Shown here piece after piece: positions 1 to 18,733 of a stretch of DNA of 32,000 bases. Numbering within the stretch: position 1 is the stretch's first letter; every line of letters starts with the position of its first letter. Source of the DNA: Candidatus Saccharimonadota bacterium (lineage in GTDB: Bacteria; Pseudomonadota; Gammaproteobacteria; Enterobacterales; Enterobacteriaceae); the NCBI RefSeq assembly GCF_012562765.1, contig NZ_CP046226.1:150001-182000 (forward strand). Reading direction: 5' to 3'. Under the pieces are notes generated by a model that saw only the letters and a program-made list of their open reading frames with translations, did not search any database and was not told the origin of the DNA. A program made the position numbers and the translations under genes.

Positions 1-344
1 ATAATAAATTAATAAAGTTTATATTTTATTAAAATTATAATATAAAATATTTAATAATATTTATTAATAATAAATTGTTTTTTTTTATATAGTGATTATT
101 AACTGTATACTTATAAATCTTATTATAAATAATAGATTATTAATAATTATTTCTAAAAAGATTAGAAATTTATGCTAGTTAAATTTTTTCTTATAAAATA
201 TGACATAAAGATAAAAAAATATTAAATATTTTATTTAAAAATAAATTTAAAATTATTAAAATATAAAATTATTTTATTAAACAAAATTATAAATATCTTT
301 AATAATTTATTATTATAATTATTTAATTTTTATATATATAAAAT

Positions 345-1286
345 ATGATAAAACATTTACCAGTTATGTTAAAAGAATCTATTGATAGTTTAAATATAAA
401 AAAAAATGGAATTTATATAGATGCTACATATGGATGTGGAGGACATACAAAATTAATTTTGTCTAAATTAGGAAATAAAGGACGTATTTATGCAATAGAT
501 TGTGATATAAAAACAATATTAATTAATAAAATTTTAGATAAAAGAATAATATATATAAATGAAAAATTTTCTAATTTAATAAATATTTTAGATACTCAAG
601 TTTTAGGTAAAATAGATGGAATATTATTTGATTTAGGATTTTCATCTTTTCAATTAAATGATCCTAAAAGAGGTTTTTCTTTTATGTTTGATGGTCCATT
701 AGATATGCGTTTTGATCAGAATCATGGAATAACTGCTACTGAATGGATTAAACAAGTTAGTAAAAATAAATTAGCTTATGTACTAAAAAAATATGGAGAA
801 GAAAAATTTGCTAATAAAATAGCATGTAATATTAAAAAATACATTATAAAAAATAAATTAGACAAAACTAGTCATTTAAATAAATTAATATTTTCTATAA
901 CATATAAATTAAAAAAAAATAAAAAAATATTTAAACATCCTGCAACAAGAACTTTTCAAGCTATAAGAATTTTTATTAATAAAGAATTAGAAGAATTAAA
1001 AAAAGCTTTATTTAATTCATTAAATATATTAAAAAAAGGAGGTATAATATCTGTAATTAGTTTTCATTCATTAGAAGATCGTATTGTAAAAAGATTTATG
1101 AAAACACATACTACAAATAATGATAAATATCATACTCGTATACCATTAACTGAAAAAGAAATAAATATTTTATCTAAAAAAGATTATAAATTAAAAATAA
1201 TTAATAGAATATTTCCTAGTTCTAAAGAAATTTATAATAATCCAAGATCAAGAAGTGCAATATTACGTGTAGGAAAAAAAATATAA
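345..1286 (+). CDS. rsmH: 16S rRNA (cytosine1402-N4)-methyltransferase RsmH (MraW)
   Basis: 313-aa ORF, collinear with E. coli RsmH. Motifs seen: GIYIDATYGCGGHT (SAM site), DGILFDLGFSSFQL, KHPATRTFQAIRIFIN, SFHSLEDRIVKRF, NPRSRSAILRV. First gene of the dcw cluster. Confidence 0.95.
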   Translation: MIKHLPVMLKESIDSLNIKKNGIYIDATYGCGGHTKLILSKLGNKGRIYAIDCDIKTILINKILDKRIIYINEKFSNLINILDTQVLGKIDGILFDLGFSSFQLNDPKRGFSFMFDGPLDMRFDQNHGITATEWIKQVSKNKLAYVLKKYGEEKFANKIACNIKKYIIKNKLDKTSHLNKLIFSITYKLKKNKKIFKHPATRTFQAIRIFINKELEELKKALFNSLNILKKGGIISVISFHSLEDRIVKRFMKTHTTNNDKYHTRIPLTEKEINILSKKDYKLKIINRIFPSSKEIYNNPRSRSAILRVGKKI

Positions 1287-1342
1287 ATAATTTAATTGTA
1301 TTAAATATTTTAATAAATATTTGAATTTTATAAGGTTAACTA

Positions 1343-2854
1343 TTGACTAGTTATAGATTAAATTTATCAGAATTATTAAATAATTTTATATATGATCATA
1401 AAATATCTAATATTATTATTAATAGAATAGTTTTAGATAGTCGTAAAATTAAAGGTCATCATTGTTTATTTTTAGCTATTAAAGGTTCTAAAGTAGATGG
1501 TAAAATTTTTATAGATGATGCTATTAAAAAAGGAGCTATTGCTATTATAACTTATAGTGAAAATAATATTTATCCATATAATATTATTTATAAAAATAAT
1601 ATTCCTATAATTACTTTACCTAATTTACAAGAACAAATTTCTTTTTTTGCTGGAAAATTATATAATAATCCTAGTCATAAAATACCTGTAATTGGAGTTA
1701 CAGGAACTAATGGGAAAACAAGTATTACTCATTTTTTAATGCAATGGATTAATTTATTAGGAAAAAAAGCAGCAATTTGTAGTACATTAGGTAATGGTTT
1801 TGATAAAAATTTAATAACTACTAATAATACAACAGATTCTGCTATTGATATTCAATATTTATTAAAAAATTTTGTAGAACAAAAAGCAGATATAGCTATT
1901 ATAGAAATATCTTCTCATGGTTTAAAACAATTTAGAGTATCTAATTTAAAATTTTCAGCAGGAATTTTTACAAATTTAAGTAGAGACCATTTAGATTATC
2001 ATCTTAATATGAAAAATTACGAACTAATTAAATGGAAATTTTTTTCTGAACATAAAATTAAAAAGAGAATAATAAATATTGATGATATTATAGGATATAA
2101 TTGGTTTAATAAATTATCTTATAGTAAAAATACTGTTGCTGTTACTACTAAAAAAAATATTTATTTTAAAAATAATTTATATTTTAAAGTTATTAAAATA
2201 AATTTTTTTAAAAATAATACTATTATTGAATTTAATTCAAGTTGGGGAAAAGGAAAAATTAAAATATTTCTTATTGGATATTTTAACGTTATTAACATTA
2301 TTTTAAGTATGACTACATTATTAACTTTAAATTTTTCTTTAAAAGAACTTATAGATACTTCATCTAAATTACATTCTGTTTATGGAAGAATGGAAATATT
2401 TCCTTCACAAAAAAAATATCCAACAGTTATAATTGATTATGCTCATACTCCTGATGCATTAAAAAATGTTCTTTTAACTATTAAATTATACTGTAAAGGA
2501 AAAATATGGTGTATATTCGGATGTGGTGGTGAAAGAGATATTGGAAAACGTTCAATTATGGGTATTATTGCTAAAAAATTTTCAGATATAATAATTATTA
2601 CTACTGATAATCCTAGATCAGAAAATATAATAAATATAGTTAAAGATATTATACAAGGATATAAATATCATGATAACTTACATATAATAATAAATAGATT
2701 TGAAGCAATTAATTATGCAATGAATAATGCTAATAAAAATGATGCTATACTAATAGCAGGCAAAGGTCATGAACAATATCAAATTATAGGGAATAAAATT
2801 TTTAATTATTCTGATTATAATGTTGTTAATAATTTTTTTAAAAAAAATAGCTAA
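1343..2854 (+). CDS. murE: UDP-N-acetylmuramoyl-L-alanyl-D-glutamate--2,6-diaminopimelate ligase MurE
   Basis: 503 aa. Mur-ligase P-loop GVTGTNGKTS; DYAHTPDAL; the DNPR motif (TTDNPRSEN) typical of meso-DAP-adding MurE. TTG start at 1343 preceded by aagg at 1332-1335. Only 56 bp after the rsmH stop. Confidence 0.93.
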   Translation: MTSYRLNLSELLNNFIYDHKISNIIINRIVLDSRKIKGHHCLFLAIKGSKVDGKIFIDDAIKKGAIAIITYSENNIYPYNIIYKNNIPIITLPNLQEQISFFAGKLYNNPSHKIPVIGVTGTNGKTSITHFLMQWINLLGKKAAICSTLGNGFDKNLITTNNTTDSAIDIQYLLKNFVEQKADIAIIEISSHGLKQFRVSNLKFSAGIFTNLSRDHLDYHLNMKNYELIKWKFFSEHKIKKRIINIDDIIGYNWFNKLSYSKNTVAVTTKKNIYFKNNLYFKVIKINFFKNNTIIEFNSSWGKGKIKIFLIGYFNVINIILSMTTLLTLNFSLKELIDTSSKLHSVYGRMEIFPSQKKYPTVIIDYAHTPDALKNVLLTIKLYCKGKIWCIFGCGGERDIGKRSIMGIIAKKFSDIIIITTDNPRSENIINIVKDIIQGYKYHDNLHIIINRFEAINYAMNNANKNDAILIAGKGHEQYQIIGNKIFNYSDYNVVNNFFKKNS

Positions 2855-4221
2855 TGAATAAATTAATTTGTTTAAAAAAAATAACAAAAATTGTGAATGG
2901 TAGATTAATTGGAAAAAATATTAATATATTAAATTTTTCTATAAATAGTAAAAAAATTAATGTTAAATGTTTATTTATTGCTATTCATGGAAAAAATTTT
3001 GATGGACATGATTTTGTTAAAGAAGCTATAAATAATGGTGTAATAGCTATAATTGTAAGTAAATATTTACAAGTAACAATTCCTCAAATAATTGTATCTG
3101 ATACAATTATTAGTTTAGGTAAAATAAGTTTATGGAAAAGATTACAATCAAAATCTCATTTTATAGGTATTACTGGATCATCTGGTAAAACATCTGTTAA
3201 AGAAATGACTGTATCAATTTTAAAAAATATAGGAAATACTTTATTTACTAAAAATAATATGAATAATATTATTGGTGTATCTTTGACATTATTAAATTTA
3301 AATAATCAATATAAATATACAATTATTGAGTTAGGAGCTAATAATTTAGATGATATTAAATATTCAAGTAATTTAGTTAGACCTAATACAGCTATTATTA
3401 ATAATATATCAGAATCTCATTTAGAAGGTTTTAAATCTTTTGAAAATATTATAAAATGTAAAAGTGATATATTTAAATTTTTATCAAATAATGATAGAGC
3501 AATTATTAATTTTGATGATATAAATTATAAAAAAATTTTATATAAATTAGTTAATAAAAAAATATGGACATTTTCTATAAATAATTATAATACTGATTTT
3601 TTTACTAGTAATTTAAAAATATTACAAAATAAAATTTATTTTAATTTACATACTCCAATAGGAGTTATCTTTATTAATTTATTTATTATTGGTGGATTAC
3701 ATAATGTAAGTAATGCATTAGCTGCTTCAGCATTATCATTATCTGCAGGAGCTTCTTTAAAAGATATATCTAAAGGTTTAGCTGATTTTAAACCAGTATT
3801 AGGTAGAATTTCCCCTATAAAATTAGGATATAATAAAATAATTTTAAATGATACATATAATGCTAATCCTCAGTCAGTTATAGCAGCTATTAATGTTTTA
3901 AAAAAAATGAATGGAAAAAAAATTTTAGTAATTGGTGATATGATGGAATTAGGATTTAATTCATTTTTTTATCATAATCAAATAAAAAACTTTATTTTAG
4001 AATGTAAATTAGATTATGTTTTAAGTATTGGAAATTATAGTAAATACATTACAAAAAATAATAATAATGCTGAACATTTTTCAAATAAAAAAACATTAAT
4101 TACAAAATTAATTAAAATATTAGCTAATTTTAATAAATTTACTATATTATTTAAAGGTTCTAGAAAAGCTCAAATAGAAATTTTAATAAATATGTTATTA
4201 GAGCAGGAAAAATTTAAATGA
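2854..4221 (+). CDS. murF: UDP-N-acetylmuramoyl-tripeptide--D-alanyl-D-alanine ligase MurF
   Basis: 455 aa. P-loop GITGSSGKTS, NDTYNANP, VIGDMMELG. The ATG shares one base with the murE stop (TAATG at 2852-2856). Confidence 0.93.
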   Translation: MNKLICLKKITKIVNGRLIGKNINILNFSINSKKINVKCLFIAIHGKNFDGHDFVKEAINNGVIAIIVSKYLQVTIPQIIVSDTIISLGKISLWKRLQSKSHFIGITGSSGKTSVKEMTVSILKNIGNTLFTKNNMNNIIGVSLTLLNLNNQYKYTIIELGANNLDDIKYSSNLVRPNTAIINNISESHLEGFKSFENIIKCKSDIFKFLSNNDRAIINFDDINYKKILYKLVNKKIWTFSINNYNTDFFTSNLKILQNKIYFNLHTPIGVIFINLFIIGGLHNVSNALAASALSLSAGASLKDISKGLADFKPVLGRISPIKLGYNKIILNDTYNANPQSVIAAINVLKKMNGKKILVIGDMMELGFNSFFYHNQIKNFILECKLDYVLSIGNYSKYITKNNNNAEHFSNKKTLITKLIKILANFNKFTILFKGSRKAQIEILINMLLEQEKFK

Positions 4222-5303
4222 TAATAATATTAGTTAAATATTTAAAATATTATTTTCCAATATTAAATATTTTTATTGGTTTAACTTTTCGTGCTATTAT
4301 TAGTCTTTTAACTTCTTTTTTTATTTCATTATATATTATTCCATATTTCATTATATTTTTAAAAAAAAAAAAATATTCTCAAGTAATTCGTTTAGATGGT
4401 CCAAAATCTCATTTTAAAAAAAATAATATTCCTACTATGGGTGGTATAGTAATATTAATATCATTTCTTATTTCTGTTTTATTTTGGTCTAATTTATATA
4501 ATCCATATTTATGGTATGTATTAATCATAGTTATATTTTATGCATTTATTGGTTTTATTGATGATTTTTATAAAATAATTTTAAATAATTCTATTGGTTT
4601 AGTAATTTATAAAAAAATTTTGTTACAAACTATTATAACAATAATAATTGTTACATTTTTTTATATAAATAATACAGAAAAATCTGCGTTACAATTAGTA
4701 ATTCCTTTTTATAAAAATCTTAAAATTTATTTAAATTTTCCTACATATTTAATGATTTCTTATTTAATTATATTATGGATTAGTAATTCTGTAAATTTAA
4801 CAGATGGATTAGATGGTTTAGCTATTATTTCTGTAATATTAGTTATTTTTGGATTATCATTATTATCATATGTTACAGGAGATATAAATTATTCTACATA
4901 TCTAAATATTCCATATTTAAAACATACAAAAGAATTAGTAATTATATGTACTGCTATTATTGGTTCAGGACTAGGTTTTTTATGGTTTAATACATATCCA
5001 GCAATTATATTTATGGGTGATATAGGATCATTATTTTTAGGAAGTGCTATAGGAATGATTACTGTTTTAATAAGACAAGAATTATTATTAATAATTATGG
5101 GTGGAATATTTTTATTAGAATCATTATCTGTAATTATTCAGGTTTTTTTTTATAAATATAAAAAATATCGTATATTTCTTATGGCTCCTATACATCATCA
5201 TTTTGAATTAAAAGGATATTTAGAATCCCATATTGTCATTAGATTTGGAATAATATCATTAATATTATTACTTATTGCTTTATCAATATTAAAGGTATGT
5301 TAA
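4218..5303 (+). CDS. mraY: phospho-N-acetylmuramoyl-pentapeptide transferase MraY
   Basis: 361-aa polytopic membrane protein. Motifs PTMGG, NLTDGLDGLA, FMGDIGSL, MAPIHHHFELKG. ATGA overlap with the murF stop (4218-4221). Contains an in-frame A13 tract at 4361-4373. Confidence 0.95.
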   Translation: MIIILVKYLKYYFPILNIFIGLTFRAIISLLTSFFISLYIIPYFIIFLKKKKYSQVIRLDGPKSHFKKNNIPTMGGIVILISFLISVLFWSNLYNPYLWYVLIIVIFYAFIGFIDDFYKIILNNSIGLVIYKKILLQTIITIIIVTFFYINNTEKSALQLVIPFYKNLKIYLNFPTYLMISYLIILWISNSVNLTDGLDGLAIISVILVIFGLSLLSYVTGDINYSTYLNIPYLKHTKELVIICTAIIGSGLGFLWFNTYPAIIFMGDIGSLFLGSAIGMITVLIRQELLLIIMGGIFLLESLSVIIQVFFYKYKKYRIFLMAPIHHHFELKGYLESHIVIRFGIISLILLLIALSILKVC

Positions 5304-6610
5304 TAAATATGATTAAAAAAGTAGTAATTATAGGTTTAGGAATTACTGGACTTTCATGTATTAAATTTTTTATTAATAAAGGTATTATACCATATATTAT
5401 GGATAGTAGAACTAATCCTCCTTTTATTAAAGAAATACCACCTTTAGTTAAATATTGTATTGGTTATCTTAATAAAGATTGGATTTTAAATGCTAATTTA
5501 ATTGTTATTAGTCCAGGAATTTCTATATTTCATCCATTATTAAAAAATGCTATAAATAAAGGAATTAAAATAATAGGAGATATTGAATTATTTTATTATT
5601 TTTCCAAAAATCCTATAATTGCTATTACAGGAACTAATGGAAAAAGTACTGTTACTAATATGATTGGAAAAATTATAAATAATTATTATAGTGCTGGAAT
5701 TGGAGGAAATATTGGGTATCCTGCATTAGAATTACTATCTAATTTTCAAAATTTTTATATATTAGAATTATCTAGTTTCCAATTAGAAACTATAAAAAAA
5801 TTTAAATCATATATATCTGTTATATTAAATATTTCATCAGATCACATGGATCGTTATCCATTAGGAATAGAACAATATCAAAAAATTAAATTAAATATTT
5901 ATAAAAATGCTTCTATATGTATATATAATGCTAATAATTCTTTAACATATCCAAATAATTTACAAAAAAATCAACGTGCTATTAGTTTTGGTATAAATAA
6001 AGGAAAATATCAAGTATATAAAAAACAAAAAAATATTTATTTAAAAGTAAATAATAAAATAATTTTAAATTTTAATAAAACTAAATTAATAGGAACACAT
6101 AATTATATTAATTCTTTAGCTGTATTAGCAATATCAGATATATTACATATACCAAGAAATATATCTTTAAAAATTATTAGTAATTACATGTTAAATAATC
6201 ATACATTACAGATTGTACATAAAAAAAATGGTGTTATTTGGATAAATGATTCTAAATCTACTAATATAAATAGTACAAAAGCAGCTTTAAGTTTTTTAGG
6301 TAATAATAAAAGAATATGGTTGTTATTAGGAGGATATGATAAAAATTGTGAATTTCATTTATTAAAAAAATATTTAATGAATGATAAGATTCATATTTAT
6401 TGTTTTGGATTAGCTAGTAAAAAAATATTATCTTTATATCCTAAAGCAATACAAGTACAGACTATGTCTGATGCGATAAAAAATATTTCAAAATTTTTAA
6501 AATATGGTGATATAGTTCTATTATCTCCAGCTTGCTCCAGTATTGATCAATTTATTAATTTTAAAGATCGTGGAGAAAAATTTATTGAATTAGCTAAACA
6601 GAATAATTAA
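5297..6610 (+). CDS. murD: UDP-N-acetylmuramoylalanine--D-glutamate ligase MurD
   Basis: 437 aa. VVIIGLGITGLS Rossmann N-terminus, ITGTNGKST P-loop, LELSSFQLE, INDSKSTN, LLSPACSSIDQF. Overlaps the mraY stop by 7 nt. An alternative ATG at 5309 is possible. Confidence 0.93.
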   Translation: MLINMIKKVVIIGLGITGLSCIKFFINKGIIPYIMDSRTNPPFIKEIPPLVKYCIGYLNKDWILNANLIVISPGISIFHPLLKNAINKGIKIIGDIELFYYFSKNPIIAITGTNGKSTVTNMIGKIINNYYSAGIGGNIGYPALELLSNFQNFYILELSSFQLETIKKFKSYISVILNISSDHMDRYPLGIEQYQKIKLNIYKNASICIYNANNSLTYPNNLQKNQRAISFGINKGKYQVYKKQKNIYLKVNNKIILNFNKTKLIGTHNYINSLAVLAISDILHIPRNISLKIISNYMLNNHTLQIVHKKNGVIWINDSKSTNINSTKAALSFLGNNKRIWLLLGGYDKNCEFHLLKKYLMNDKIHIYCFGLASKKILSLYPKAIQVQTMSDAIKNISKFLKYGDIVLLSPACSSIDQFINFKDRGEKFIELAKQNN

Positions 6611-6701
6611 AATAAATTTAAAAATTTAATTTTTCATTAATTTAAATATTTTTACATTATGTTAATATAATTAAATTTATTAAAAATTATATAAATAAAA
6701 A

Positions 6702-7763
6702 ATGTCAAAAAAAATTATTATAGTATCTGGTGGAACAGGTGGACATATTTATCCAGGTCTTAATATAGCATATAAATTAATAGAAAAAGGATGGAATGTT
6801 CGTTGGTTAGGTACTATTAATAGAATGGAAGCAAATATTATTCCTAAAACAGGAATAAAAATTAATTTTATTAAAGTTATAAAATTTGAAAAAAAAAATA
6901 TTTGGTCAAAAATAATTACTTTATTTAAATTAATAAAACCAATTTATGAATCTATTTTAATTTATAAATCTTATAAACCTAATATAGTTTTAACTATGGG
7001 AAGTTATATATCAGGACCTAGTGGAATAGCAGCTTGGTTATGTGGTATTCCTTTAATTATTCATGAACAAAATAGTATTCTAGGAATTACTAATAATATT
7101 TTATCAAAAATATCTACAATAAATATGCAAGCTTTTCCTAATACATTTAAAAATGGTATATTAGTAGGTAATCCTTTAAGTAAAGAAATAATAAAATTAT
7201 CTTTATTTAAAAAAAATATTGTAAAAAATAATTATATTCTTCATATATTAATTATGGGAGGTAGTCAAGGTTCTAATATTATTAATATTATAGGTGTACA
7301 ATTAGCAAAAATTTTAAAAAATAAAGTAATTATATTACATCAAGTAGGAAAAAATAATTTAAAAAATATTTCTTTATCTTTTTTAAATAAATATCAAAAA
7401 AAATTTTATTTTGTAACAGAATATATTTATAAGATTCATAATGCATATAAATGGGCAGATATTATTATTAGTAGGTCAGGAGCTATGACTGTTAGTGAAA
7501 TTTCTGCTATAGGGTTACCTGCTATTTTTATACCTTTTAAACATAAAGATAATCAACAATATTTAAATGCATTAAGATTAGCAAAAATTGGCGCAGCAAA
7601 AATTTTTGATCAAGATAATTTAAATATTAATGATATTATTAATACTTTATTATCTTGGAATAAGAAAACATTAAATATTATGTCAAAAAAATCTCGTAGT
7701 ATATCTTTAATTAATTCTACAGATTTAATTTATAGAGAAATAAAAAATATTTTAATTAATTAA
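6702..7763 (+). CDS. murG: UDP-N-acetylglucosamine--N-acetylmuramyl-(pentapeptide) pyrophosphoryl-undecaprenol GlcNAc transferase MurG
   Basis: 353 aa. SGGTGGHIYPG, IHEQNS, MGGSQGS, ISRSGAMTVSEI. Begins 91 bp after murD, at the position where ftsW sits in the canonical cluster. Confidence 0.93.
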   Translation: MSKKIIIVSGGTGGHIYPGLNIAYKLIEKGWNVRWLGTINRMEANIIPKTGIKINFIKVIKFEKKNIWSKIITLFKLIKPIYESILIYKSYKPNIVLTMGSYISGPSGIAAWLCGIPLIIHEQNSILGITNNILSKISTINMQAFPNTFKNGILVGNPLSKEIIKLSLFKKNIVKNNYILHILIMGGSQGSNIINIIGVQLAKILKNKVIILHQVGKNNLKNISLSFLNKYQKKFYFVTEYIYKIHNAYKWADIIISRSGAMTVSEISAIGLPAIFIPFKHKDNQQYLNALRLAKIGAAKIFDQDNLNINDIINTLLSWNKKTLNIMSKKSRSISLINSTDLIYREIKNILIN

Positions 7764-7791
7764 AATTATATAATATAAAATTACTACAATA

Positions 7792-9255
7792 ATGATAACA
7801 AATATGTTTAGTGAAAAAATAAATTATATAATACCTAAAATGGATAATATCAAAAATATTCATTTTATTGGTATTGGAGGTTCTGGTATGGGTGGTATAG
7901 CTTATATTTTATTGAAAAAAGGATATAATATAAGCGGATCAGATATTATTTCTAATAATATTACAAAAGATTTAATTTCATTAGGAGTAAAAATATATTT
8001 TAAACATAGTGCTAAAAATATTAATAATGCAAATGTAATTGTAGTATCTTCAGCAATAACAAATAATAATCCAGAAATAATTGCTGCTAAAAAAAATAAT
8101 ATTATAGTAATTAATCGAGCTCAAATGTTATCTGAAATAATGAGATTTTATTATGGTATAACAATAACTGGAAGTCATGGAAAAACTACTACTACTGCTA
8201 TAATATATTATATTTTTTCATCGTTAGGATTAGATCCAACATTTATTAATGGAGGAATTTTAAAAAAATCAGAATTATATGCTCATTTAGGAAAAAGTAA
8301 ATATTTTATAGCAGAAGCTGATGAAAGTGATGCTTCTTTTTTAAAATTAAGACCTATAATAAATATTATTACTAATATTGACGATGAACATTTAAATTAT
8401 TATCAGAATGATATTGAAATATTAAAAAATAATTTTTTAAAATATGCACAAAATATACCTTTTTATGGTTGTATTATTGTTTGTATTGACGATACATCTA
8501 TTCGTAATCTTATAAAAAATAATTTAATGCATAATAATATTATTACTTATGGTTTTAGTAAAGATGCAGATATAAGGATATTTAATTATCAACAATTTGG
8601 TTTAAAAAGTAAATTTACTTTATTAAAAGTAAAAGAAAATAAATTTTTAGAAATAAATTTAAATTTACCTGGTTATCATAATGTTTTAAATGCAACAGCA
8701 GCCTTTATTGTATCTTCTTATATAGGAATTAATCATAAATATATTTTAAAAGCATTAGAAAATTTTTCAGGAATTAAAAGAAGATTTGATCTCTTAGGTA
8801 TTTTTAAATATAAAAAAAATAATTTAATAAATAATATTATTCTTATTGAAGACTATGGACACCATCCTACTGAAATAAATATAACAATTAATACAATACG
8901 TATTACTTGGCCTAAAAAAAAAATTATAATGATATTTCAACCACATCGTTATTCTAGAACTATAAATTTATTTAATAAATTTATAAAAGTATTATCTACT
9001 GTTGATGTATTATTTTTATTAAATGTATATCCTGCTGGAGAAGAATATATTACTGGTGGAGATAGTATTTCTTTATATAAAAGTATTAAAAAATATGGAA
9101 AAATTAATCCAATTTTAAGCATATGGAAAAATTATAATGAAATGATTATAAGTTTATATTCAAAATTTACTGGAAATGATATATTATTAATTCAAGGAGC
9201 AGGAGATATTAATAATATCTCAACATTATTAGTAAAAAAAAAAATAAAATTGTAA
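7792..9255 (+). CDS. murC: UDP-N-acetylmuramate--L-alanine ligase MurC
   Basis: 487 aa. HFIGIGGSGMGGIA, TGSHGKTTTT P-loop, AEADESDASFL, DYGHHPTEI. An alternative start at Met5 (7804) is possible. Confidence 0.93.
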   Translation: MITNMFSEKINYIIPKMDNIKNIHFIGIGGSGMGGIAYILLKKGYNISGSDIISNNITKDLISLGVKIYFKHSAKNINNANVIVVSSAITNNNPEIIAAKKNNIIVINRAQMLSEIMRFYYGITITGSHGKTTTTAIIYYIFSSLGLDPTFINGGILKKSELYAHLGKSKYFIAEADESDASFLKLRPIINIITNIDDEHLNYYQNDIEILKNNFLKYAQNIPFYGCIIVCIDDTSIRNLIKNNLMHNNIITYGFSKDADIRIFNYQQFGLKSKFTLLKVKENKFLEINLNLPGYHNVLNATAAFIVSSYIGINHKYILKALENFSGIKRRFDLLGIFKYKKNNLINNIILIEDYGHHPTEINITINTIRITWPKKKIIMIFQPHRYSRTINLFNKFIKVLSTVDVLFLLNVYPAGEEYITGGDSISLYKSIKKYGKINPILSIWKNYNEMIISLYSKFTGNDILLIQGAGDINNISTLLVKKKIKL

Positions 9256-9297
9256 TTTTTTACATTGTCAAAAATATTTTTTATAAAAAAATTAAAT

Positions 9298-10215
9298 ATG
9301 TCTAATAAAATAGCCGTTTTATATGGTGGTGATTCACCAGAAAGAAAAATATCTTTAATTTCAGGAAAAATGGTGTTAAATTCAATGAAATTAATGGGTA
9401 TTCAAGCTTATGGAATAGATACTAGAAATTTTTCTTTATTTTTATTAAAAAAAAAATTTAAAAAAGTTTTTATTGCTTTACATGGAAAAGGAGGTGAAGA
9501 TGGAAGTGTACAAACTATATTAAAATATCTTAATATTCCTTATACTGGTAGTAGAGCATTAGCTTCTTCTATAACTATAAATAAATTTATTACAAAAACT
9601 TTGTGGAAAGAATATGGTTTACCTGTATATCCACATTTTTTATTAAAAAAAAAATATTTTATTAAAAAAAATTATTTAGAAATAAAAAAAAATATTTTAA
9701 ATTTGAAATTACCTGTATGTGTAAAACCTAATTCTACAGGATCAAGTTTAGGAGTTTTTAAAGTAGATAATATTAATTATTTATTTAATGCTATAAAAAA
9801 ATCTTTTATATATAGTAATAGTGTATTAATTGAAAAATATATTGAAGGAATAGAATATACAGTTAGTATTTTAGGTAATAAAACATTACCATCAATTAGA
9901 ATTTCTTCACCTTATGTATTATATAATTATAAAGCAAAATATTTTAATAAAAAAACTCAATATTTTTGTCCTAGTGGGTTAAATAAATATAAAGAAATAG
10001 AAATATCCAAATTAGCTATAAATGCATGGAATGTATTAGAATGTAGTGGTTGGGGTAGAGTAGATATAATTTTAGATAAAAAAAATAATTTTCAATTATT
10101 AGAAATAAATACTTGTCCAGGAATGACTCCTCATAGTTTATTTCCTATAGCTGCTCAAAAAGCTGGTTTTTCTTTTAATGATGTAATTAAAAAAATTTTA
10201 TTTTTAGCTAAATAA
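9298..10215 (+). CDS. ddl: D-alanine--D-alanine ligase
   Basis: MSNKIAVLYGGDSPERKISL aligns with the E. coli DdlB N-terminus. Also HGKGGEDGSVQ and EINTCPGMT (ATP-grasp). I place the start at ATG 9298 rather than the TTG at 9265 used by the ORF track. Confidence 0.92.
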   Translation: MSNKIAVLYGGDSPERKISLISGKMVLNSMKLMGIQAYGIDTRNFSLFLLKKKFKKVFIALHGKGGEDGSVQTILKYLNIPYTGSRALASSITINKFITKTLWKEYGLPVYPHFLLKKKYFIKKNYLEIKKNILNLKLPVCVKPNSTGSSLGVFKVDNINYLFNAIKKSFIYSNSVLIEKYIEGIEYTVSILGNKTLPSIRISSPYVLYNYKAKYFNKKTQYFCPSGLNKYKEIEISKLAINAWNVLECSGWGRVDIILDKKNNFQLLEINTCPGMTPHSLFPIAAQKAGFSFNDVIKKILFLAK

Positions 10216-10336
10216 TTCATATTATTTTTATAAAAAAATATAAAACTATATCAAAAAATATTTTTAATAAAATTATATAAATATCATTTAAAAATTTTAT
10301 TTCTATAATTATATTTTTAAAAAATATTTTATAAAA

Positions 10337-10810
10337 TTAATTTGCTAAAGAAGCTAATTGTTCTATGATATAACGTAATTTTATAGGACTTTTTTTAGCT
10401 AGGTTAAGTAATAATATAGCACTATTTTTACTTAAAGTATTTTGTTTATAAAAATATTTTTTTTTTAATATTTTATTATTTGTTAATAACATTGGATTAA
10501 TTTTAATATTTATATTTTTTAAAGAAGGAAAAATTTCTTTTTTTAAAAGTAATAAAATATTTGATTTTTCATATAAAAATCTCATCATAGAGCTAGCATT
10601 ATATGTTTCTACAATTAAAATATTATTTTTAAAATTTTTTGCATTATAGCAATTACTTAACTCTATTGGGAAATAATTTTTAATTGTTTGATTAATTTTT
10701 TTTAAAATATTTATATATAATTTTAATTTTATGAATATTCTTGAACAAGAAGGATAATTATATTCATTATAAAATATTTTTTCAATTGATAATAACTTAT
10801 TATTACGCAT
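10337..10810 (-). CDS. conserved-position hypothetical protein; candidate DUF721/DciA-like helicase-loading factor
   Basis: 157-aa ORF with no stop codon in a genome where AT-rich stop triplets are very frequent, so it is probably real coding sequence. It is divergent from secA across 130 bp. That is the slot and orientation a DUF721 gene occupies between lpxC and secA in Pseudomonas/Vibrio-type genomes (from my recollection). The core segment NNILIVETYNASSMMRFLYEKSNILLLLKKEIFPSLKNINIKINP resembles the DUF721 strand-helix-strand pattern. No search was run. Confidence 0.4.
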   Translation of the reverse strand: MRNNKLLSIEKIFYNEYNYPSCSRIFIKLKLYINILKKINQTIKNYFPIELSNCYNAKNFKNNILIVETYNASSMMRFLYEKSNILLLLKKEIFPSLKNINIKINPMLLTNNKILKKKYFYKQNTLSKNSAILLLNLAKKSPIKLRYIIEQLASLAN

Positions 10811-10940: not shown

Positions 10941-13673
10941 ATGTTTAAAAATTTTTTATCAAAAATTTTTGGTAGTCATAATGATCATGTTTTACGACGT
11001 ATAAAAAAAATAGTTAATAATATTAATTACTTGGAAAAAAAAATTGAAAAATTAACTGATTTAGAATTAAAAAATAAAACTTTATTTTTTAAAAAAAAAT
11101 TAAAAGAAAATTTTACATTAGAAAATATTTTACCAGAAGCTTTTGCTGTAGTAAGAGAAACAATTAAAAGATTATTTGGTATTAGACTTTTTGATGTTCA
11201 ATTAATAGGAGGAATAGTATTAAATAATAATTGTGTTGCTGAAATGCGTACAGGAGAAGGAAAAACTTTAACTGCAACTTTACCAGCTTATCTTAATGCT
11301 TTAACTGGTAATGGTGTTCATATTGTTACTGTTAATGATTATTTAGCTCAACGTGACGCAGAAAATAATAGATTATTGTTTGAATTTTTAGGATTAAATA
11401 TAGGTATTAATTTATCAGGGATGTCACCTAATGAAAAAAAAATATCTTATTTAGCTGATATTACTTATGGTACAAATAATGAATTTGGATTTGATTTTTT
11501 ACGAGATAATATGGTTTTTAGTTATACAGATAAAGTACAAAGAAATTTATATTTTGCTATAGTAGATGAGGTTGATTCTATTCTTATAGATGAAGCTAGA
11601 ACACCATTAATAATATCTGGACCAACTGAGGATAATTCAAAACTATATAAACAAATAAATAAAATTATTCCAAAATTAATATATCAAGAAAAAGAAGATT
11701 CTGATTCTTTTCAAGGAAAAGGACATTATTTTATAGATGAGAAATCACGACAAGCATATTTAACAGAAAAAGGATTAATTTATATTGAAAAAATTTTAAT
11801 AGAAAACAAAATTATTAAAAAAGAAGAATCATTATATTCTAATTCTAATATTATTATTATGCATCATATTATTGCTGGATTAAGATCTCATAAATTATTT
11901 ATCAAAAATGTTGATTATATTGTAAAAAATAATAAAGTTATTATAGTAGATGAACATACAGGACGTATTATGAAAGGAAGAAGATGGTCAGAAGGATTAC
12001 ATCAAGCAATAGAAGCAAAAGAAAATGTAAAAATTAATAATGAAAATCAGACTTTAGCTTCTATTACATTTCAAAATTATTTTAGATTATATAAAAAATT
12101 ATCAGGAATGACAGGTACAGCTAATACAGAAGCATTTGAATTTAAAGAAATTTATAAATTAGATACTATTATTATTCCTACAAATAAACCAATGATCAGA
12201 AAAGATTTACCTGATGTAATATATATTACAGAAAAAGAAAAAATTAAAGCAATTATAGATGATATAAAAAATAAATATGTTATAGGACAACCAGTATTAG
12301 TTGGTACTATTTCAATTGAAAAATCAGAATTAATTTCTAAAAAATTAACTTTAATAGGTATTAAGCATAATATTTTAAATGCAAAATTACATTCAAAAGA
12401 AGCTGAAATTATATCTCAAGCAGGTAAAAAATATGCTGTAACTATTGCCACAAATATGGCAGGAAGAGGAACTGATATTGTTTTAGGAGGAAATATTCAA
12501 TTTAAATTAAATAATAAATTAAATAAAGATCAAATAAAAAACATAAAATTATCTTGGTTAAAAGAACATAATGAAGTTTTATCTTTAGGAGGATTATATG
12601 TTATTGGTACTGAACGTCATGAATCTAGAAGAATTGATAATCAGTTAAGAGGTCGTTCAGGACGTCAAGGTGATTATGGTTCTTCAAGATTTTATTTATC
12701 TATGGAAGATTCTTTAATGCGTATTTTTGCTTCAAATAAAATATCAAAAATAATGCATAAATTTGGTATAAAAAAAAATGAATCTATTGAACATCCATGG
12801 ATAACTAAAGCTATAGCTAGAGCACAAGAAAAAGTAGAAAATTATAATTTTGATATAAGAAAACAATTATTAGAATATGATGATGTAATCAATGACCAAC
12901 GTTTAGCTATATATACACAAAGAAATAAATTATTACAAACTAAAAATATTAGTACAATTATAAAACAATTTCGAAAAGATGTATTTCATAAAATTATAGA
13001 TAAATATATAAAATCTAATTTATTTTTAGAAGATGAATGGGATTTAATAAAATTAAATAATTATTTTACAAAAAAATTTAATTTACATTTACCTATTAAT
13101 AAATTTTTAAAAAATTCTAAAAATAACAAATATATTATTAGTAAAAATTATTTTTTTGAAAAAATAATTAATTTTTCTGAACAAGAATATAATAAAAAAG
13201 AAAATATATTAGGTAATGATATTATTCGTAATTTTGAAAAAAATATAATGCTTCAATTATTAGATAGTTTATGGAAAGAGCACTTATCTGCTATAGATTA
13301 TTTAAGAGAAGGAATTCATTTAAGAGGATATGCACAAAAAGATCCTAAACAAGAATATAAAATTGAATCTTTTAATATGTTTAGTTTAATGTTAGATTCT
13401 TTAAAAGAAGAAATTATTACTATTTTAAGTAAAATTTCAATAGAATTACCAGAAAAAAATATTTTTAATTCATCAATAAAATTACAAAATTTTAGAAATA
13501 AAAATAATGAAAAAATTATAAATAATTTAAGTCTTTCTCAAAAAGATCATAATTATTTTATAAATAAAAAAAAAAGTAATATTAATATTTATTCATTAAA
13601 TAAGATAGGAAGAAATGATTTATGTCCTTGTTCTTCTGGAAAAAAATATAAATTTTGTCATGGTAATAACTAA
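10941..13673 (+). CDS. secA: preprotein translocase ATPase SecA
   Basis: 910 aa. [14 protein letters not shown] (Walker A), [43 protein letters not shown], and the C-terminal zinc motif [14 protein letters not shown]. No secM-like leader ORF is present upstream. Confidence 0.97.
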
Positions 13674-13734: not shown

Positions 13735-14841
13735 TTAATTTTTTAAATTATCAAAAAAAAGTTTTATATTATTTAAAAATTTTTTATATTTAGGAGTATT
13801 TTTATAACTATCTACTTTAATAAAAGTTTTTCCTAAATTATACAATATTATTTTTTGTTTATCATTTAAATTTACTGGAGTTTCTACAATAACTTTACAT
13901 AATAAATCTCCAATAATATTATCTCTTATTGATTTAATACCTTTATTACGTAATCTAAATATTTTTCCTGTTTGAGTTTCTGGAGGAATTTTAATTTTTA
14001 TAAATCCATTAAATGTTGGAATATCTAAATTACCACCTAATGCTGCTATAGAAAAATTAATAGGTAATTCACAAAATAAATTGTTTTCTTCTCTTATAAA
14101 GAGAGGATGTTTTTTTATTCTAATTTCTATATATAAATCTCCTGATGGAGCACCATTATTTCCTAAATCTCCTTCTCCATTTAATTTAATTCGATCTCCA
14201 GTATTAATTCCTGACGGAATTTTTATAGATAATATTTTATATTTTTCTACTTTTCCTTTTCCTTTACAAATAAAACATAAATTTTTTATTAAAGAACCTC
14301 TACCGTGACAATTAGGACAAGTTTGTTGTACAGTAAAAAAACCTTGTCTCATTTGTATTTGTCCATGACCATTACAAGTATAACAATTTTGAAGAGATCC
14401 TTGTGATCCAGTACCTTTACAATTAATACAGGTTTTTAAAAATGGAATTTTAATTTCTTTTGTTACTCCTTTTACAGCTTCTTCTAAAGAAATATTAATA
14501 GCATATTTTAAATCATTTCCTCTATTAGATTTATGACTTCGTGTTCCTCCAAAAATATCTCCAAAAACATCTCCAAAAATATCACTAAAATCAGTTGCAT
14601 TATTTATATTATCTTGTTCAAAAGCAGAATGTCCATATTGATCATAAGCAGATCTTTTTTGTTTATTACTTAAAATTTCGTAAGCTTGTTTAATTTCTTT
14701 AAATTTATTTTCAGCTTTTTTATTTCCTAGATTACGATCTGGATGAAATTTTATAGCTAAACGTTTATATGCTTTTTTAATTTCACTATCTTTTGCATTT
14801 CTAGTAATACCTAAAATTTCATAATAATCTTTTTCTGACAT
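13735..14841 (-). CDS. dnaJ: molecular chaperone DnaJ (Hsp40)
   Basis: 368 aa. J-domain DYYEILGI...[16 protein letters not shown]; G/F region [13 protein letters not shown]; four CxxCxGxG zinc-finger repeats ([32 protein letters not shown]). Lies downstream of dnaK. Confidence 0.96.
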
Positions 14842-14979
14842 AATATATTACTACCTTTCCTAATCCTATAATTTTAATACCGATTTCTATATTGATAAAT
14901 TTTATTTATAATATATAAACGGTATTAATATAATTTTTATATTCAATTAGTGAAAATAATTTAATGATTGAGGAGGCAA

Positions 14980-16899
14980 TTATTTTTTATTATCTTTGAC
15001 TTCTTCAAATTCAGCATCTACAACATTATTATCTTTATTTTTAGATTTATTATTATTCATATCATTATTTGTTTTTTGCTGATTATTATTTTCCATTAAA
15101 TTTGAAATTTTACTAGATGCTTGAAGTAATAATTGCATTTTTTTTTGAATATCATTTTTATCTTCTGTTTTCAATGATATATTAAGTTGATTTATTGCAT
15201 TTTCAATAAATTCTTTATCTTCTTTAGTAATTTTATCACCTACTTCTTCCATTTTTTTCTTTGTACTATGAATAAGTTGATCAGATTCATTACGTATTTT
15301 AATTAATTCTTCAAAACGAATATCTAATTCAGCATTAGATTCTGCATCTCTTATCATTTTTTCTACTTCTTTTTCATTAAGACCTGATGATGCTTTTATT
15401 ATAATTTTTTGTTCTTTACCACTTTTTTTATCTTTTGCAGAAACATGTAATATTCCGTCAGCGTCTATATCAAAAGTAACTTCTATTTGTGGAATACCAC
15501 GAGGTGCAGGACTAATTCCATCTAAATTAAACTGTCCTAGAGACTTATTATCACTTGCTCTTTTACGTTCTCCTTGAACTACATGAATAGTTACAGCAGA
15601 TTGATTATCTTCAGCAGTTGAAAAAACTTGACTATGTTTTGTAGGAATAGTAGTATTTTTATTAATTAAAGTAGTCATAATACCACCGACAGTTTCTATT
15701 CCTAATGATAAAGGTGTGACGTCTAATAATAATACATCTTTTACATCACCAGCCAATACCCCACCTTGAACAGCAGCACCTATTGCAACTGCTTCATCTG
15801 GATTAACATCTTTTCTAGGTTCTTTTCCAAAAAAATCAGCAACTTTTTTTTGAACCATTGGCATTCTTGTTTGTCCACCCACTAAAATTACATCATTAAT
15901 ATCAGATATAGATAAATGTGCATCTTTTAAAGCTATTTTTAATGGATTTATGGATTTATCTATTAAATCTTCAACTAAAGATTCTAATTTAGCTCTTGTT
16001 ACTTTGATATTTAGATGTTTAGGACCTAAAGAATCTGCAGTAATATAAGGTAAATTTACATCTGTTTGTTGTGTTGATGACAACTCGATTTTTGCTTTTT
16101 CTGCAGTTTCTTTTAAACGTTGCATTGCTAATGGATCATTAGTCAAATCAATTCTTTGATCTTTTTTAAATTCTGATACTAAATAATTAATTAAACGACT
16201 ATCAAAATCTTCACCACCTAAATGAGTATCACCATTTGTTGATAATACTTCAAAAGTTTTTTCACCATCAACTTCATCTATTTCAATAATAGAGATATCA
16301 AATGTTCCACCTCCTAAATCATATACAGCTATAGTTTGATTTCCTTTTCCTTTATCTAATCCATAAGCTAAGGCTGCTGCAGTTGGTTCATTTATAATAC
16401 GTTTTACTTCTAATCCAGCTATACGTCCTGCATCTTTTGTAGCTTGTCTTTGAGCATCATTAAAATAAGCAGGAACTGTAATTACAGCTTCACTGACTTT
16501 AGTTCCTAAGAAATCTTCTGCTGTTTTTTTCATTTTTTTTAATACTTCAGCAGAAATTTGTGGTGGTGCTATTTTTTTTCCTTTAACATATAACCATGCA
16601 TCACCGTTATTTGATTCAACAATTTTATAAGGCATAATTTTTATATCACGTTGTACTTCTTCATCTTGAAAACGACGTCCAATAAGTCTTTTAATTGCAA
16701 AAAGAGTATTTTGCGGATTCGTAATAGCTTGACGTTTAGCTGGTTGACCTACTAGAATTTCACCATCTTTAGTATAAGCAATAACAGATGGTGTAGTTCT
16801 ATCACCTTCTGCATTTTCTAATACACGAGCTTTATTACCATCTATTATTGCAACACAAGAATTAGTTGTACCTAAATCAATACCAATTATTTTACTCAT
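14980..16899 (-). CDS. dnaK: molecular chaperone DnaK (Hsp70)
   Basis: 639 aa, very highly similar to E. coli DnaK along its whole length ([41 protein letters not shown], and the C-terminal [11 protein letters not shown]). GAGGA RBS 8 nt before the ATG. Visibly less AT-rich than its neighbours. Confidence 0.98.
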
Positions 16900-17006
16900 C
16901 TAAAAGGTCCTCAACTTAAATTTTCATTAAATTATCTAAATAATTTAATAAATAAAATATTTTAAAATATTCACATTTTTGAAAATGATAGTCCTTGATG
17001 AAAAGA

Positions 17007-17035
17007 AAATGGGGACTCATATTAAAGCATCAAGG
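17007..17035 (-). promoter_or_regulatory. sigma-32 (RpoH) heat-shock promoter of dnaK-dnaJ
   Basis: The minus strand reads CCTTGATG-CTTTAATATGAGT-CCCCATTTT. This has the same box sequences and the same 13-nt spacing as I recall for E. coli dnaK P1 (CCCTTGATG-N13-CCCCATTTA) and the sigma-32 consensus CTTGAA-N13-15-CCCCATnT. It is a G/C island in otherwise G/C-free spacer, about 100 nt upstream of the dnaK ATG. Confidence 0.75.
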
Positions 17036-17230
17036 TCTAAATGTAAAAATTTTTTTAATTTTATATTATATAAGTATTAATTTTAATTTATAATATAAAA
17101 ATATTTGAAAAAATATTCATATTATTTAAAAATAATTTTAAAAATAATATTTAAACAAATGTTTTAACCAACTTATATTACATGTATAATATAAGTTAAT
17201 TTCTTTCTGTAATACATTTAGAGGATAGAA

Positions 17231-18733
17231 ATGAAATATCTAATGGAAAAAATAAATTTTACAAAAAAATATAAATCAGAATGTATAGTAATTGGAATAT
17301 TTGAGAAATATCAACTTTCTTATATTGCTGATATTATTAATAAAATATCTAATAATTATATATTAAATATTTTAAAAAAAAATAATTTTAAAGGAAAAAT
17401 TAATCAAATATTGATGTTATATGAAGTACCTAACATTTTAATAAAAAAAGTATTAATTATTGGTTGCGGTATTAAAGAAAAATTTAATAGAGAAAATAAT
17501 AAAATAATTATTAAAAAAATAATTAATAAATTAAAAAAAATTGAAATAAAAGATGTTCTCTGGTGTTTAACAGATTTAATAATTAAAAATGTTGATTTAT
17601 ATTGGAATATAAGAGATACAATAAATATTATTGAAGATAAACTTTATATTTTTAATAAATTTAAAAAAATAAAAAAACATAAATTATCTCTTATTAAATT
17701 TAACATAAATGATAATAATATTGAAGTTTATAAAAAAGCAATTACACATGCTACAGCAATTAAAATTGGTATTATAACAACTAAGAATCTTGCAAATTTA
17801 CCTCCTAATATATGTAATCCTAAATATTTATCTTTAGAAACATATAAATTAGCTGAAAAGTATTCAAAAAATATTTCAGTAAAAATTATTAATGAAATAG
17901 AAATGAAAAATTTAGGTATGAATGCTTATTTAGCTGTGGGTAATGGTTCTAAAAATGAATCTATGATGTCTATTATTAAATATGATAATTTATTTGATCA
18001 TAGTCAGCCTATAGTTTTAATAGGAAAAGGTTTAACTTTTGATTCAGGAGGAATATCTTTAAAACCTAGTTTAAATATGGATGAAATGAAATATGATATG
18101 TGTGGTGCAGCATGTATATATGGAGTAATGAATGTTATATCTGAATTAAAATTACCCCTTAAAGTTATTGGTATTATTGCAGGGTCTGAAAATATGCCTG
18201 ATAGTAATTCATTTCGTCCTGGTGATATTATTAAAACAATGTCAGGAAAAACAGTAGAAATAATAAATACGGATGCGGAAGGAAGATTAGTTTTATGTGA
18301 TGTATTAACATATGTAAATAAATTTAATCCTTCTATCGTTATAGATATTGCTACATTAACAGGAGCTTGTGTAGTTGCTTTAGGAAATAATATTAGTGGA
18401 CTTATGTCTAATAATATAAAATTATCACAAAATATAATAAAAGCATCATTAGATGTAGATGATCGAGTTTGGGAATTACCTATTAATGATAAAAATTATT
18501 ATAATCAATTACAATCAGATATTGCTGATATAAGAAATACTGGAAATTCTAACGCTGGAGGAGCTATTACAGCAGCATGTTTTTTATCAAAATTTACTAA
18601 AAAATATAAATGGGCTCATATCGATATTGCAGGAACAGCATGGAATTATAGTAAAAATAATAAATCTTTTGCTTCTGGTAGACCTGTTAATTTATTATGT
18701 CAATTTTTATTGAATTATTCATATAATAATTAA
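17231..18733 (+). CDS. pepA: leucyl (cytosol) aminopeptidase PepA
   Basis: 500 aa. VLIGKGLTFDSGGISLKP, MKYDMCGAA, NTDAEGRLVLCD (M17 metal and active-site motifs). GAGGA RBS 5 nt upstream of the ATG. Confidence 0.95.
   Translation: MKYLMEKINFTKKYKSECIVIGIFEKYQLSYIADIINKISNNYILNILKKNNFKGKINQILMLYEVPNILIKKVLIIGCGIKEKFNRENNKIIIKKIINKLKKIEIKDVLWCLTDLIIKNVDLYWNIRDTINIIEDKLYIFNKFKKIKKHKLSLIKFNINDNNIEVYKKAITHATAIKIGIITTKNLANLPPNICNPKYLSLETYKLAEKYSKNISVKIINEIEMKNLGMNAYLAVGNGSKNESMMSIIKYDNLFDHSQPIVLIGKGLTFDSGGISLKPSLNMDEMKYDMCGAACIYGVMNVISELKLPLKVIGIIAGSENMPDSNSFRPGDIIKTMSGKTVEIINTDAEGRLVLCDVLTYVNKFNPSIVIDIATLTGACVVALGNNISGLMSNNIKLSQNIIKASLDVDDRVWELPINDKNYYNQLQSDIADIRNTGNSNAGGAITAACFLSKFTKKYKWAHIDIAGTAWNYSKNNKSFASGRPVNLLCQFLLNYSYNN

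Follow-up and report, generated by a model that had tools for sequence, protein, structure and literature searches.

The 32,000-nucleotide stretch of contig NZ_CP046226.1 analysed here (the window) contains a division and cell wall (dcw) gene cluster that has shrunk to the compact remnant of a lipid-II operon, every division gene having been excised. The window is part of the chromosome of a relative of Escherichia coli that lives as an obligate symbiont in the reed beetle Plateumaris pusilla. MraY and the product of the minus-strand open reading frame (ORF) of the cluster are 100% identical to NCBI proteins of this symbiont, whose chromosome measures 514,699 bp (Reis et al. 2020, PMC7289800). 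The locus is probably a streamlined dcw remnant in an FtsZ-less symbiont that keeps its cell wall by means of the elongation machinery alone.

Genes were called from the ORF list together with an NCBIfam scan of the window proteins. The cluster is laid out as follows.

1..344, no strand: leader upstream of rsmH, AT-rich and non-coding, no mraZ.
345..1286, plus strand: rsmH, 16S rRNA m4C1402 methyltransferase, heading the remnant cluster (TIGR00006, 335 bits against a cut-off of 154).
1287..1342, no strand: rsmH-murE junction, slot of ftsL and ftsI, 56 bp, no ORF and no tblastn match.
1343..2854, plus strand: murE, meso-diaminopimelate-adding ligase (NF001123, 608 bits against a cut-off of 586), the TTG start at 1343 being uncertain.
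2854..4221, plus strand: murF, D-Ala-D-Ala-adding ligase (TIGR01143, 385 bits against a cut-off of 289), 1-nt overlap with murE.
4218..5303, plus strand: mraY, lipid I synthase (TIGR00445, 379 bits against a cut-off of 192), 4-nt overlap with murF.
5297..6610, plus strand: murD, D-Glu-adding ligase (TIGR01087, 378 bits against a cut-off of 212), 7-nt overlap with mraY.
6611..6701, no strand: murD-murG junction, slot of ftsW, 91 bp, no ORF.
6702..7763, plus strand: murG, lipid II synthase (TIGR01133, 301 bits against a cut-off of 250).
7792..9255, plus strand: murC, L-Ala-adding ligase (TIGR01082, 498 bits against a cut-off of 335).
9298..10215, plus strand: ddl, D-Ala-D-Ala ligase (NF002378, 346 bits against a cut-off of 243, alignment from residue 11); ATG 9298 is the likely start, and the longest ORF opens at TTG 9265.
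10216..10336, no strand: ddl-dciA junction, slot of ftsQ-ftsA-ftsZ-lpxC, 121 bp, no tblastn match.
10337..10810, minus strand: dciA (DUF721), putative DnaB helicase operator of 157 aa (Pfam DciA, E = 1.2e-4).
10941..13673, plus strand: secA, customary downstream neighbour of the dcw cluster (NF009538, 1197 bits).

The co-directional, rsmH-headed order murE-murF-mraY-murD-murG-murC-ddl of the gammaproteobacterial dcw cluster is present in the window. The ORF list and NCBIfam both agree with the sequence of genes from rsmH through ddl and the minus-strand ORF to secA that had been read in the first-pass annotation, and the junction and overlap lengths given there were correct. The gaps between rsmH and secA measure 56, 91, 28, 42, 121 and 130 bp, and the start/stop overlaps of 1, 4 and 7 nt read TAATG, ATGA and ATGTTAA. 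All cluster enzymes match their family models over the full length with scores above the curated cut-offs. The catalytic motifs of the Mur, MraY and Ddl enzymes had also been described as intact, and such motifs were read in MurC, MurD, MurE and MurF (P-loops, with GTNGKT and DNPR in MurE and GSSGKT in MurF), in MraY (DDxxK, NxxNLTDGLDG and HHHFE) and in MurG (GGTGGH and GGSQG). The tRNA and Rfam scans detected nothing inside the cluster, and the promoter and terminator scan was uninformative at the GC content of the window of approximately 20% (153 sites against 171 expected). Positions 1-344 presumably carry the promoter of the block.

The ftsL, ftsI, ftsW, ftsQ, ftsA and ftsZ genes that are interleaved with or follow the wall genes in a dcw cluster were not found among them. 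As had been claimed, neither these genes nor lpxC left any trace in the gaps: no ORF of at least 25 aa occurs in any cluster gap (ORF scan, gaps of 28-130 bp), and tblastn searches with the FtsL, FtsI, FtsW, FtsQ, FtsA, FtsZ and LpxC proteins of Wigglesworthia and the FtsA, FtsZ and LpxC proteins of Pantoea sp. Mhis gave no match in the 32-kb window (all E > 0.1), with the positive control RsmH recovered at 5e-76. The reported lack of mraZ in the 344 bp upstream of rsmH holds as well, since every minus-strand frame is closed across bases 1-344 and the plus strand has a sole ORF there, of 28 aa. The control sample comprised 82 gammaproteobacterial dcw loci, namely, 80 arbitrary loci among the matches listed for a MraY alignment query together with those of Wigglesworthia and Pantoea sp. 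Mhis. Among the listed control loci, ftsW lies between murD and murG in all 63 that have both genes, ftsZ lies downstream in all 54 that are full-length, and ftsI is present in 53 of these 54. The fts-less arrangement is far from chance.

The same arrangement extends across the clade. Reed-beetle symbionts ('Candidatus Macropleicola' and relatives) have chromosomes of 454-517 kb with 403-454 protein genes, and perfect synteny has been reported over 26 host species whose diversification is estimated to span 75-100 million years (My) (PMC7289800). Identical gene order was found in a Donacia symbiont (CP046182.1, locus L001), with gaps of 65 (rsmH-murE), 66 (murD-murG), 37 (ddl-dciA) and 114 bp at the critical junctions. 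The identical fts-less order was also found in an independent Logan assembly from the Sequence Read Archive (SRR32619173 contig 4, 14.9 kb, locus L003), in which the rsmH-murE, murD-murG and ddl-dciA junctions measure 63, 35 and 30 bp, respectively. The tblastn similarity to the fts and lpxC products was likewise not found in L001 or L003. The proteins of L003 show 90-95% amino-acid identity to those of L001. For the wider comparison, the coding sequence (CDS) index of orthologues in 26 genomes was taken from Supplementary Data 1 of Reis et al. (PMC7289800). The rsmH-to-secA index difference is 9 in 25 of the 26 genomes and 10 in that of the D. crassipes symbiont; mraY, murD, murG, murC and ddl are consecutive, with murD directly after mraY and murG directly after murD in 25 of 26. 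RefSeq accessions in published KEGG tables are also consecutive for mraY, murD, murG and murC. The fts-less order is common to L001, L003 and, by CDS index, all 26 genomes, and is therefore ancestral to reed-beetle symbionts, 75-100 My old, rather than the artefact at short junctions that had been considered in the first-pass annotation. In the D. crassipes symbiont, an extra CDS index stands between murD (123) and murG (125), which may reflect either a gene that has been split or a short leftover ORF at the former place of ftsW.

The ORF between ddl and secA bears on the extent of the loss. It is named 'DUF721 domain-containing protein' by NCBI and is conserved across the clade; its match to Pfam DciA (PF05258/DUF721) reaches 22.6 bits, below the gathering score of 24 (E = 1.2e-4), and 8 of its 16 clade orthologues match DciA at E <= 0.01. 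In the window, L001 and L003 alike, it is found immediately upstream of secA, occupying the slot beside the lost lpxC. Beta- and gammaproteobacterial PF05258 genes sit between secA and lpxC, and Enterobacterales that are dnaC-less retain dciA (Brezellec et al. 2016, PMC5109545). The names 'DnaC' and 'helicase loader' had 0 matches in the 26-genome table. As judged from sequence and position, the ORF is a putative dciA, an ancestral resident of the lpxC-secA slot that would mark the exact right-hand edge of the ftsQ-ftsA-ftsZ-lpxC deletion. The list of missing genes in the first-pass annotation thus stands for the fts genes and lpxC and fails for secM: with dciA resident in this slot in a likely dnaC-less ancestor, secM does not count as a loss. 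The presence of dciA would imply descent from a dnaC-less Enterobacterales lineage that loads DnaB with the putative DciA. A non-enterobacterial origin, which the DciA match had suggested, was ruled out because dnaC-less Enterobacterales keep dciA in exactly that slot.

The search for division genes elsewhere in the genome drew on published annotation, namely, the RAST/OrthoMCL table of 26 genomes, which includes a P. pusilla symbiont column and leaves out only unannotated singletons, and KEGG orthology (KO) tables for the RefSeq proteins of four Donacia and Macroplea symbionts (PMC12508126). The 26-genome table contains none of the names FtsZ, FtsA, FtsW, FtsQ, FtsK, LpxC, ZipA, RodZ, amidase and lytic transglycosylase, no tubulin or GTPase name and 0 matches for 'MraZ'. 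Its KEGG category 'Chromosome and associated proteins' holds only RodA, YccV, MreB, MreC, MinC, MinD, MinE and EngB, and its category 'Cell cycle' only Lon, ClpX, ClpP and RseP. The KEGG tables of the four genomes gave 0 matches for ftsZ, ftsA, ftsW, ftsI, ftsQ, ftsL, K03531, K03590, K03588, K03587 and lpxC, and the positive controls mreB, minC, mraY, murG, secA, rodA, mrdA, murJ and ftsY were all found. The first-pass annotation had offered two outcomes: an FtsZ-less organism that makes a peptidoglycan precursor if the fts genes are absent genome-wide, or a mere rearrangement if they had been relocated. Two independent published annotation sets that list no FtsZ, FtsA, FtsQ or FtsW favour the former and speak against the latter.

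The machinery for building a wall is retained. According to the published table, the P. pusilla symbiont carries the following wall proteins outside the cluster.

CDS index 5: MreB.
CDS index 6: MreC.
CDS index 14: Alr.
CDS index 66: DacA.
CDS index 222: UppS.
CDS index 234: UppP.
CDS index 292: RodA.
CDS index 293: MrdA, penicillin-binding protein (PBP) 2.
CDS index 342: MurI.
CDS index 351: MurJ.

The lipid-II pathway is represented by MurC, MurD, MurE, MurF, MraY, MurG and Ddl in the window and by Alr, MurI, UppS, UppP and MurJ in the P. pusilla column, and murB is named for a Donacia symbiont in a 2025 study. MreB, MreC, RodA and PBP2 are listed in all 26 genomes by the annotation of the published table. 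RodA-PBP2 is the only annotated synthase pair in the P. pusilla symbiont, from which the class A PBP of the other four Plateumaris symbionts is missing. The ratio of nonsynonymous to synonymous substitution rates (dN/dS) between L001 and L003 is 0.10-0.35 for murE, murF, mraY, murD, murG, murC and ddl and 0.18 for secA; these are NG86 estimates from two Donacia-type loci at 90-95% amino-acid identity and are rough at 20% GC. Because of these ratios, the intact lengths and motifs and the conservation in 26 genomes, the lipid-II synthesis genes are under purifying selection, which supports the continued selection on lipid-II production that had been proposed from the intact, overlapping genes. 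The lipopolysaccharide category of the 26-genome table contains gmhA and hldE only, and in Plateumaris symbionts only, so lpxC was lost together with the whole lipid A pathway. Several details of envelope metabolism were observed in addition. The only Tol-Pal name in the 26-genome table is a TolQ-like protein in three genomes; glmM has no match in the KEGG tables of the four genomes, which makes the source of UDP-N-acetylglucosamine a question; and the lack of a named amidase, lytic transglycosylase or RodZ raises the question of which agent cuts the wall.

The common ancestor of the Donaciinae symbionts lost three blocks (ftsL-ftsI, ftsW and ftsQ-ftsA-ftsZ-lpxC) down to the last base, and mraZ as well, which left the closely spaced, co-directional wall genes from rsmH to ddl for the production of lipid II. 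Going by the published gene tables, no FtsZ-based divisome would exist elsewhere in the genome. Lipid II would be flipped by MurJ, and the wall would be built by RodA-PBP2 organised by MreB and MreC, as their annotation suggests. The wall is probably kept for osmotic protection, given that the symbiont alternates between intracellular and extracellular stages, the latter in the egg jelly coat and the Malpighian tubule lumen. In the egg jelly coat the symbionts live outside host cells, in the larval midgut organs inside them, and in the Malpighian tubules in both states (PMC7289800), and peptidoglycan retention for integrity has also been argued for extracellular stink-bug symbionts (PMC8032781). 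Division would proceed without a Z-ring, most likely through MreB/RodA/PBP2-directed wall synthesis at the constriction site, a form of division demonstrated in Chlamydia and suggested for Wolbachia supergroup J (PMC10591338). The host may also contribute wall hydrolases or mechanical help, since the annotation names neither an amidase nor a lytic transglycosylase. Symbiont cells shift between elongated and short forms across host stages (2025 study).

Several observations weigh against this explanation. The absence of FtsZ and the divisome from the genome is read from RAST and KEGG/PGAP annotation, and within RAST itself a cluster beside ftsH and ftsJ, cluster172 (CDS index 309 of the P. pusilla symbiont, outside the window), bears the label 'Cell division protein FtsI' in 26 of 26 genomes. 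This label is not confirmed by the KEGG tables, in which no KO is assigned; in the D. marginata symbiont, PGAP has at the corresponding position a singleton CDS with low expression and no KO. Moreover, minCDE is annotated and expressed in 16 of the 26 reed-beetle symbiont genomes, an unexpected finding if FtsZ disappeared 75-100 My ago, and the 2025 study infers self-regulated symbiont division from minCDE and mreBCD. In the published table, most Donacia, Macroplea and Neohaemonia symbionts have MinCDE; all five Plateumaris symbionts and five of the Donacia symbionts lack it. Such patchy, repeated loss fits relaxed selection after the loss of the target FtsZ, and the expression and regulation of MinCDE leave an FtsZ-independent role possible.

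The strongest rival is that the divisome has been lost but peptidoglycan takes no part in division, the cells proliferating in an L-form-like manner or being pinched by the host (through membrane extrusion-resolution, or through its dynamin-like or vesicle machinery); the lipid-II pathway would then serve only envelope integrity in the extracellular stages or act as a host immune signal. This is possible, although we hold it to be clearly less than an even chance. It would account for the absence of annotated amidase, lytic transglycosylase, Tol-Pal and RodZ and for the pleomorphic cells, which are elongated in larvae. A precedent exists in Angomonas, where a host dynamin-like protein is reported to control endosymbiont division; the extracellular stages are documented (PMC7289800), and the integrity proposal for stink-bug symbionts (PMC8032781) is of the same kind. 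However, MreB, MreC, RodA and PBP2 have been kept in 26 genomes over 75-100 My, the same proteins drive division in the only well-studied FtsZ-less walled bacteria, and no beetle host factor is known.

Wall-directed division by the elongation proteins has also to be set against a conventional one in which the fts genes are intact elsewhere and the locus reflects rearrangement only. The RAST 'FtsI' label and the retention of minCDE, whose known target is FtsZ, in 16 genomes are what this explanation can claim. It is improbable, given that few bacterial proteins are recognised as easily as FtsZ and yet no FtsZ, FtsA, FtsQ, FtsW, FtsK or ZipA name appears in the orthologue table, that no such KO appears in the four KEGG genomes despite the recovered controls, and that the 'FtsI' CDS lacks a KO and has a singleton as its PGAP counterpart. 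Even less credence is due to a divergent FtsZ, or another unrecognised cytoskeletal protein, working with MinCDE from among the hypothetical proteins. Several conserved hypothetical clusters do exist in the table and minCDE is kept and expressed in many clade members, but the FtsZ of Wigglesworthia, in a 0.70-Mb genome with the locus at 24% GC, still shares 75% identity with that of Pantoea, minCDE has disappeared from all Plateumaris symbionts, and the table holds no tubulin or GTPase name. Assembly collapse or a misjoin at the short junctions, for which no supporting observation was made, can be dismissed as next to impossible, since the same junctions recur in the Donacia genome, the independent Logan assembly and, by CDS index, the 26 genomes, for which perfect synteny is reported (PMC7289800).

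Two features lie beyond the cluster. Directly after secA, on the opposite strand and where mutT would be expected, dnaJ-dnaK occupies window positions 13735-16899 (minus strand); the same pair adjoins secA in L001 and L003, which points to a clade-wide rearrangement or deletion at the downstream border. At 23239-24285 (plus strand), potD, a spermidine/putrescine-binding protein gene scoring 556 bits, just below the cut-off of 582, lies by itself between ridA and trhO, without potA, potB or potC as neighbours.

FtsZ is nearly universal, and its few walled exceptions (Chlamydiae, some Planctomycetes and Wolbachia supergroup J) are the main window on alternative division. Reed-beetle symbionts would be an independent FtsZ-less case within the Enterobacterales, the order whose divisome is understood best, and if the favoured explanation is true, their division must proceed by a route not yet studied in these symbionts. 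At its fullest, the case would be that of an E. coli relative that has lived for 75-100 My with a complete peptidoglycan pathway and without a Z-ring, FtsA, FtsQ, FtsL, FtsB, FtsW, FtsI, FtsK or annotated wall hydrolases. Its division mechanism would be either new for Proteobacteria (elongasome-only constriction) or host-supplied, and 16 of the 26 sister lineages would retain and express MinCDE although the one target known for it is gone. We rate this full picture as rather unlikely. Were it true, the host-supplied route could consist of beetle amidases or lysozymes or of a membrane-pinching protein, and MinCDE would have an FtsZ-independent function, such as positioning MreB/RodA-PBP2 synthesis or chromosome segregation. 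The favoured FtsZ-less explanation itself also corrects the assumption in the recent literature of self-regulated division through minCDE and mreBCD, and it leads one to ask whether functions for cutting the wall or for constriction come from the beetle. The system provides 26 syntenic genomes that form a natural series for the presence or absence of both MinCDE and a class A PBP, and its extracellular stages can be imaged. A literature search found no paper that joins ftsZ with Donaciinae or discusses divisome absence in reed-beetle symbionts, and the 2020 paper makes no mention of fts or cell division (PMC7289800); the absence thus seems to be unremarked. FtsZ-less, wall-retaining, elongasome-only host-restricted bacteria are already known and the genomes are public, so these symbionts are a useful example rather than a new principle.

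Among known systems, the locus of Wigglesworthia glossinidia is the closest in layout. It shares the order and orientation of rsmH, murE, murF, mraY, murD, murG and murC, then secA, with similar start/stop overlaps, and, like the reed-beetle symbiont, it is without mraZ. In contrast, Wigglesworthia, for all its 0.70-Mb genome and 24% GC at the locus, still has every division gene and lpxC in its slot, the order being rsmH-ftsL-ftsI-murE-murF-mraY-murD-ftsW-murG-murC-ftsQ-ftsA-ftsZ-lpxC-secA. The Edessa stink-bug symbionts (approximately 0.83 Mb), which have lost lpxC and keep ftsZ beside secA (PMC8032781), and Pantoea sp. Mhis of Murgantia histrionica (1.0 Mb, SZZX01000004.1, locus L004) are, like the reed-beetle symbiont, reduced Enterobacterales with extracellular life and all mur genes. 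Unlike it, the stink-bug symbionts retain ftsZ and ftsA, and remnants that have no equivalent in the window are visible in Pantoea sp. Mhis. In the latter, ftsI and ftsW are each in two broken pieces and ftsQ is a C-terminal piece only (L004:5500-7100, 12450-13510 and 16900-17240), intact copies of the mur genes, ftsA, ftsZ and lpxC are present, and ddl was not detected in the locus. Pantoea sp. Mhis possibly represents an early or intermediate stage of the same divisome erosion, or else draft-assembly errors.

Buchnera aphidicola of Lachninae aphids is likewise an insect symbiont of the Enterobacterales with a partly eroded division and wall toolkit, but it shows the opposite pattern: only ftsZ and ftsA are kept, and mraY, murG, ddl, pbp2 and rodA are lost. 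In Angomonas deanei, division of a reduced endosymbiont depends on a host protein at the division site, the dynamin-like ETP9; this endosymbiont is a beta-proteobacterium in a protist, and the many mentions of ftsZ in the paper suggest that FtsZ is still involved there.

Going by the published annotation of the reed-beetle symbionts, the Chlamydiae resemble them in having no FtsZ, a complete lipid-II pathway, retained MreB, RodA and PBP2 and a host-restricted life. They belong to a different phylum, and their loss was independent. Division in Chlamydia differs in using both PBP2 and PBP3/FtsI, with inhibitors of either affecting division. Chlamydia also retains FtsW, FtsK, FtsQ/L/B-like proteins, RodZ and an amidase, and none of these is named in the reed-beetle symbiont tables. 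Wolbachia supergroup J, too, has lost FtsZ and nearly all of the divisome while keeping MreB, RodA, PBP2 and most lipid-II genes, and MreB has been proposed as its FtsZ substitute (review PMC10591338). The likeness, as far as annotation shows, lies in this loss of FtsZ and the divisome with the elongation proteins kept. Wolbachia supergroup J is strictly intracellular and without MurJ and FtsW, whereas the reed-beetle symbionts belong to the Enterobacterales, pass through extracellular stages and keep MurJ, Alr and MurI.

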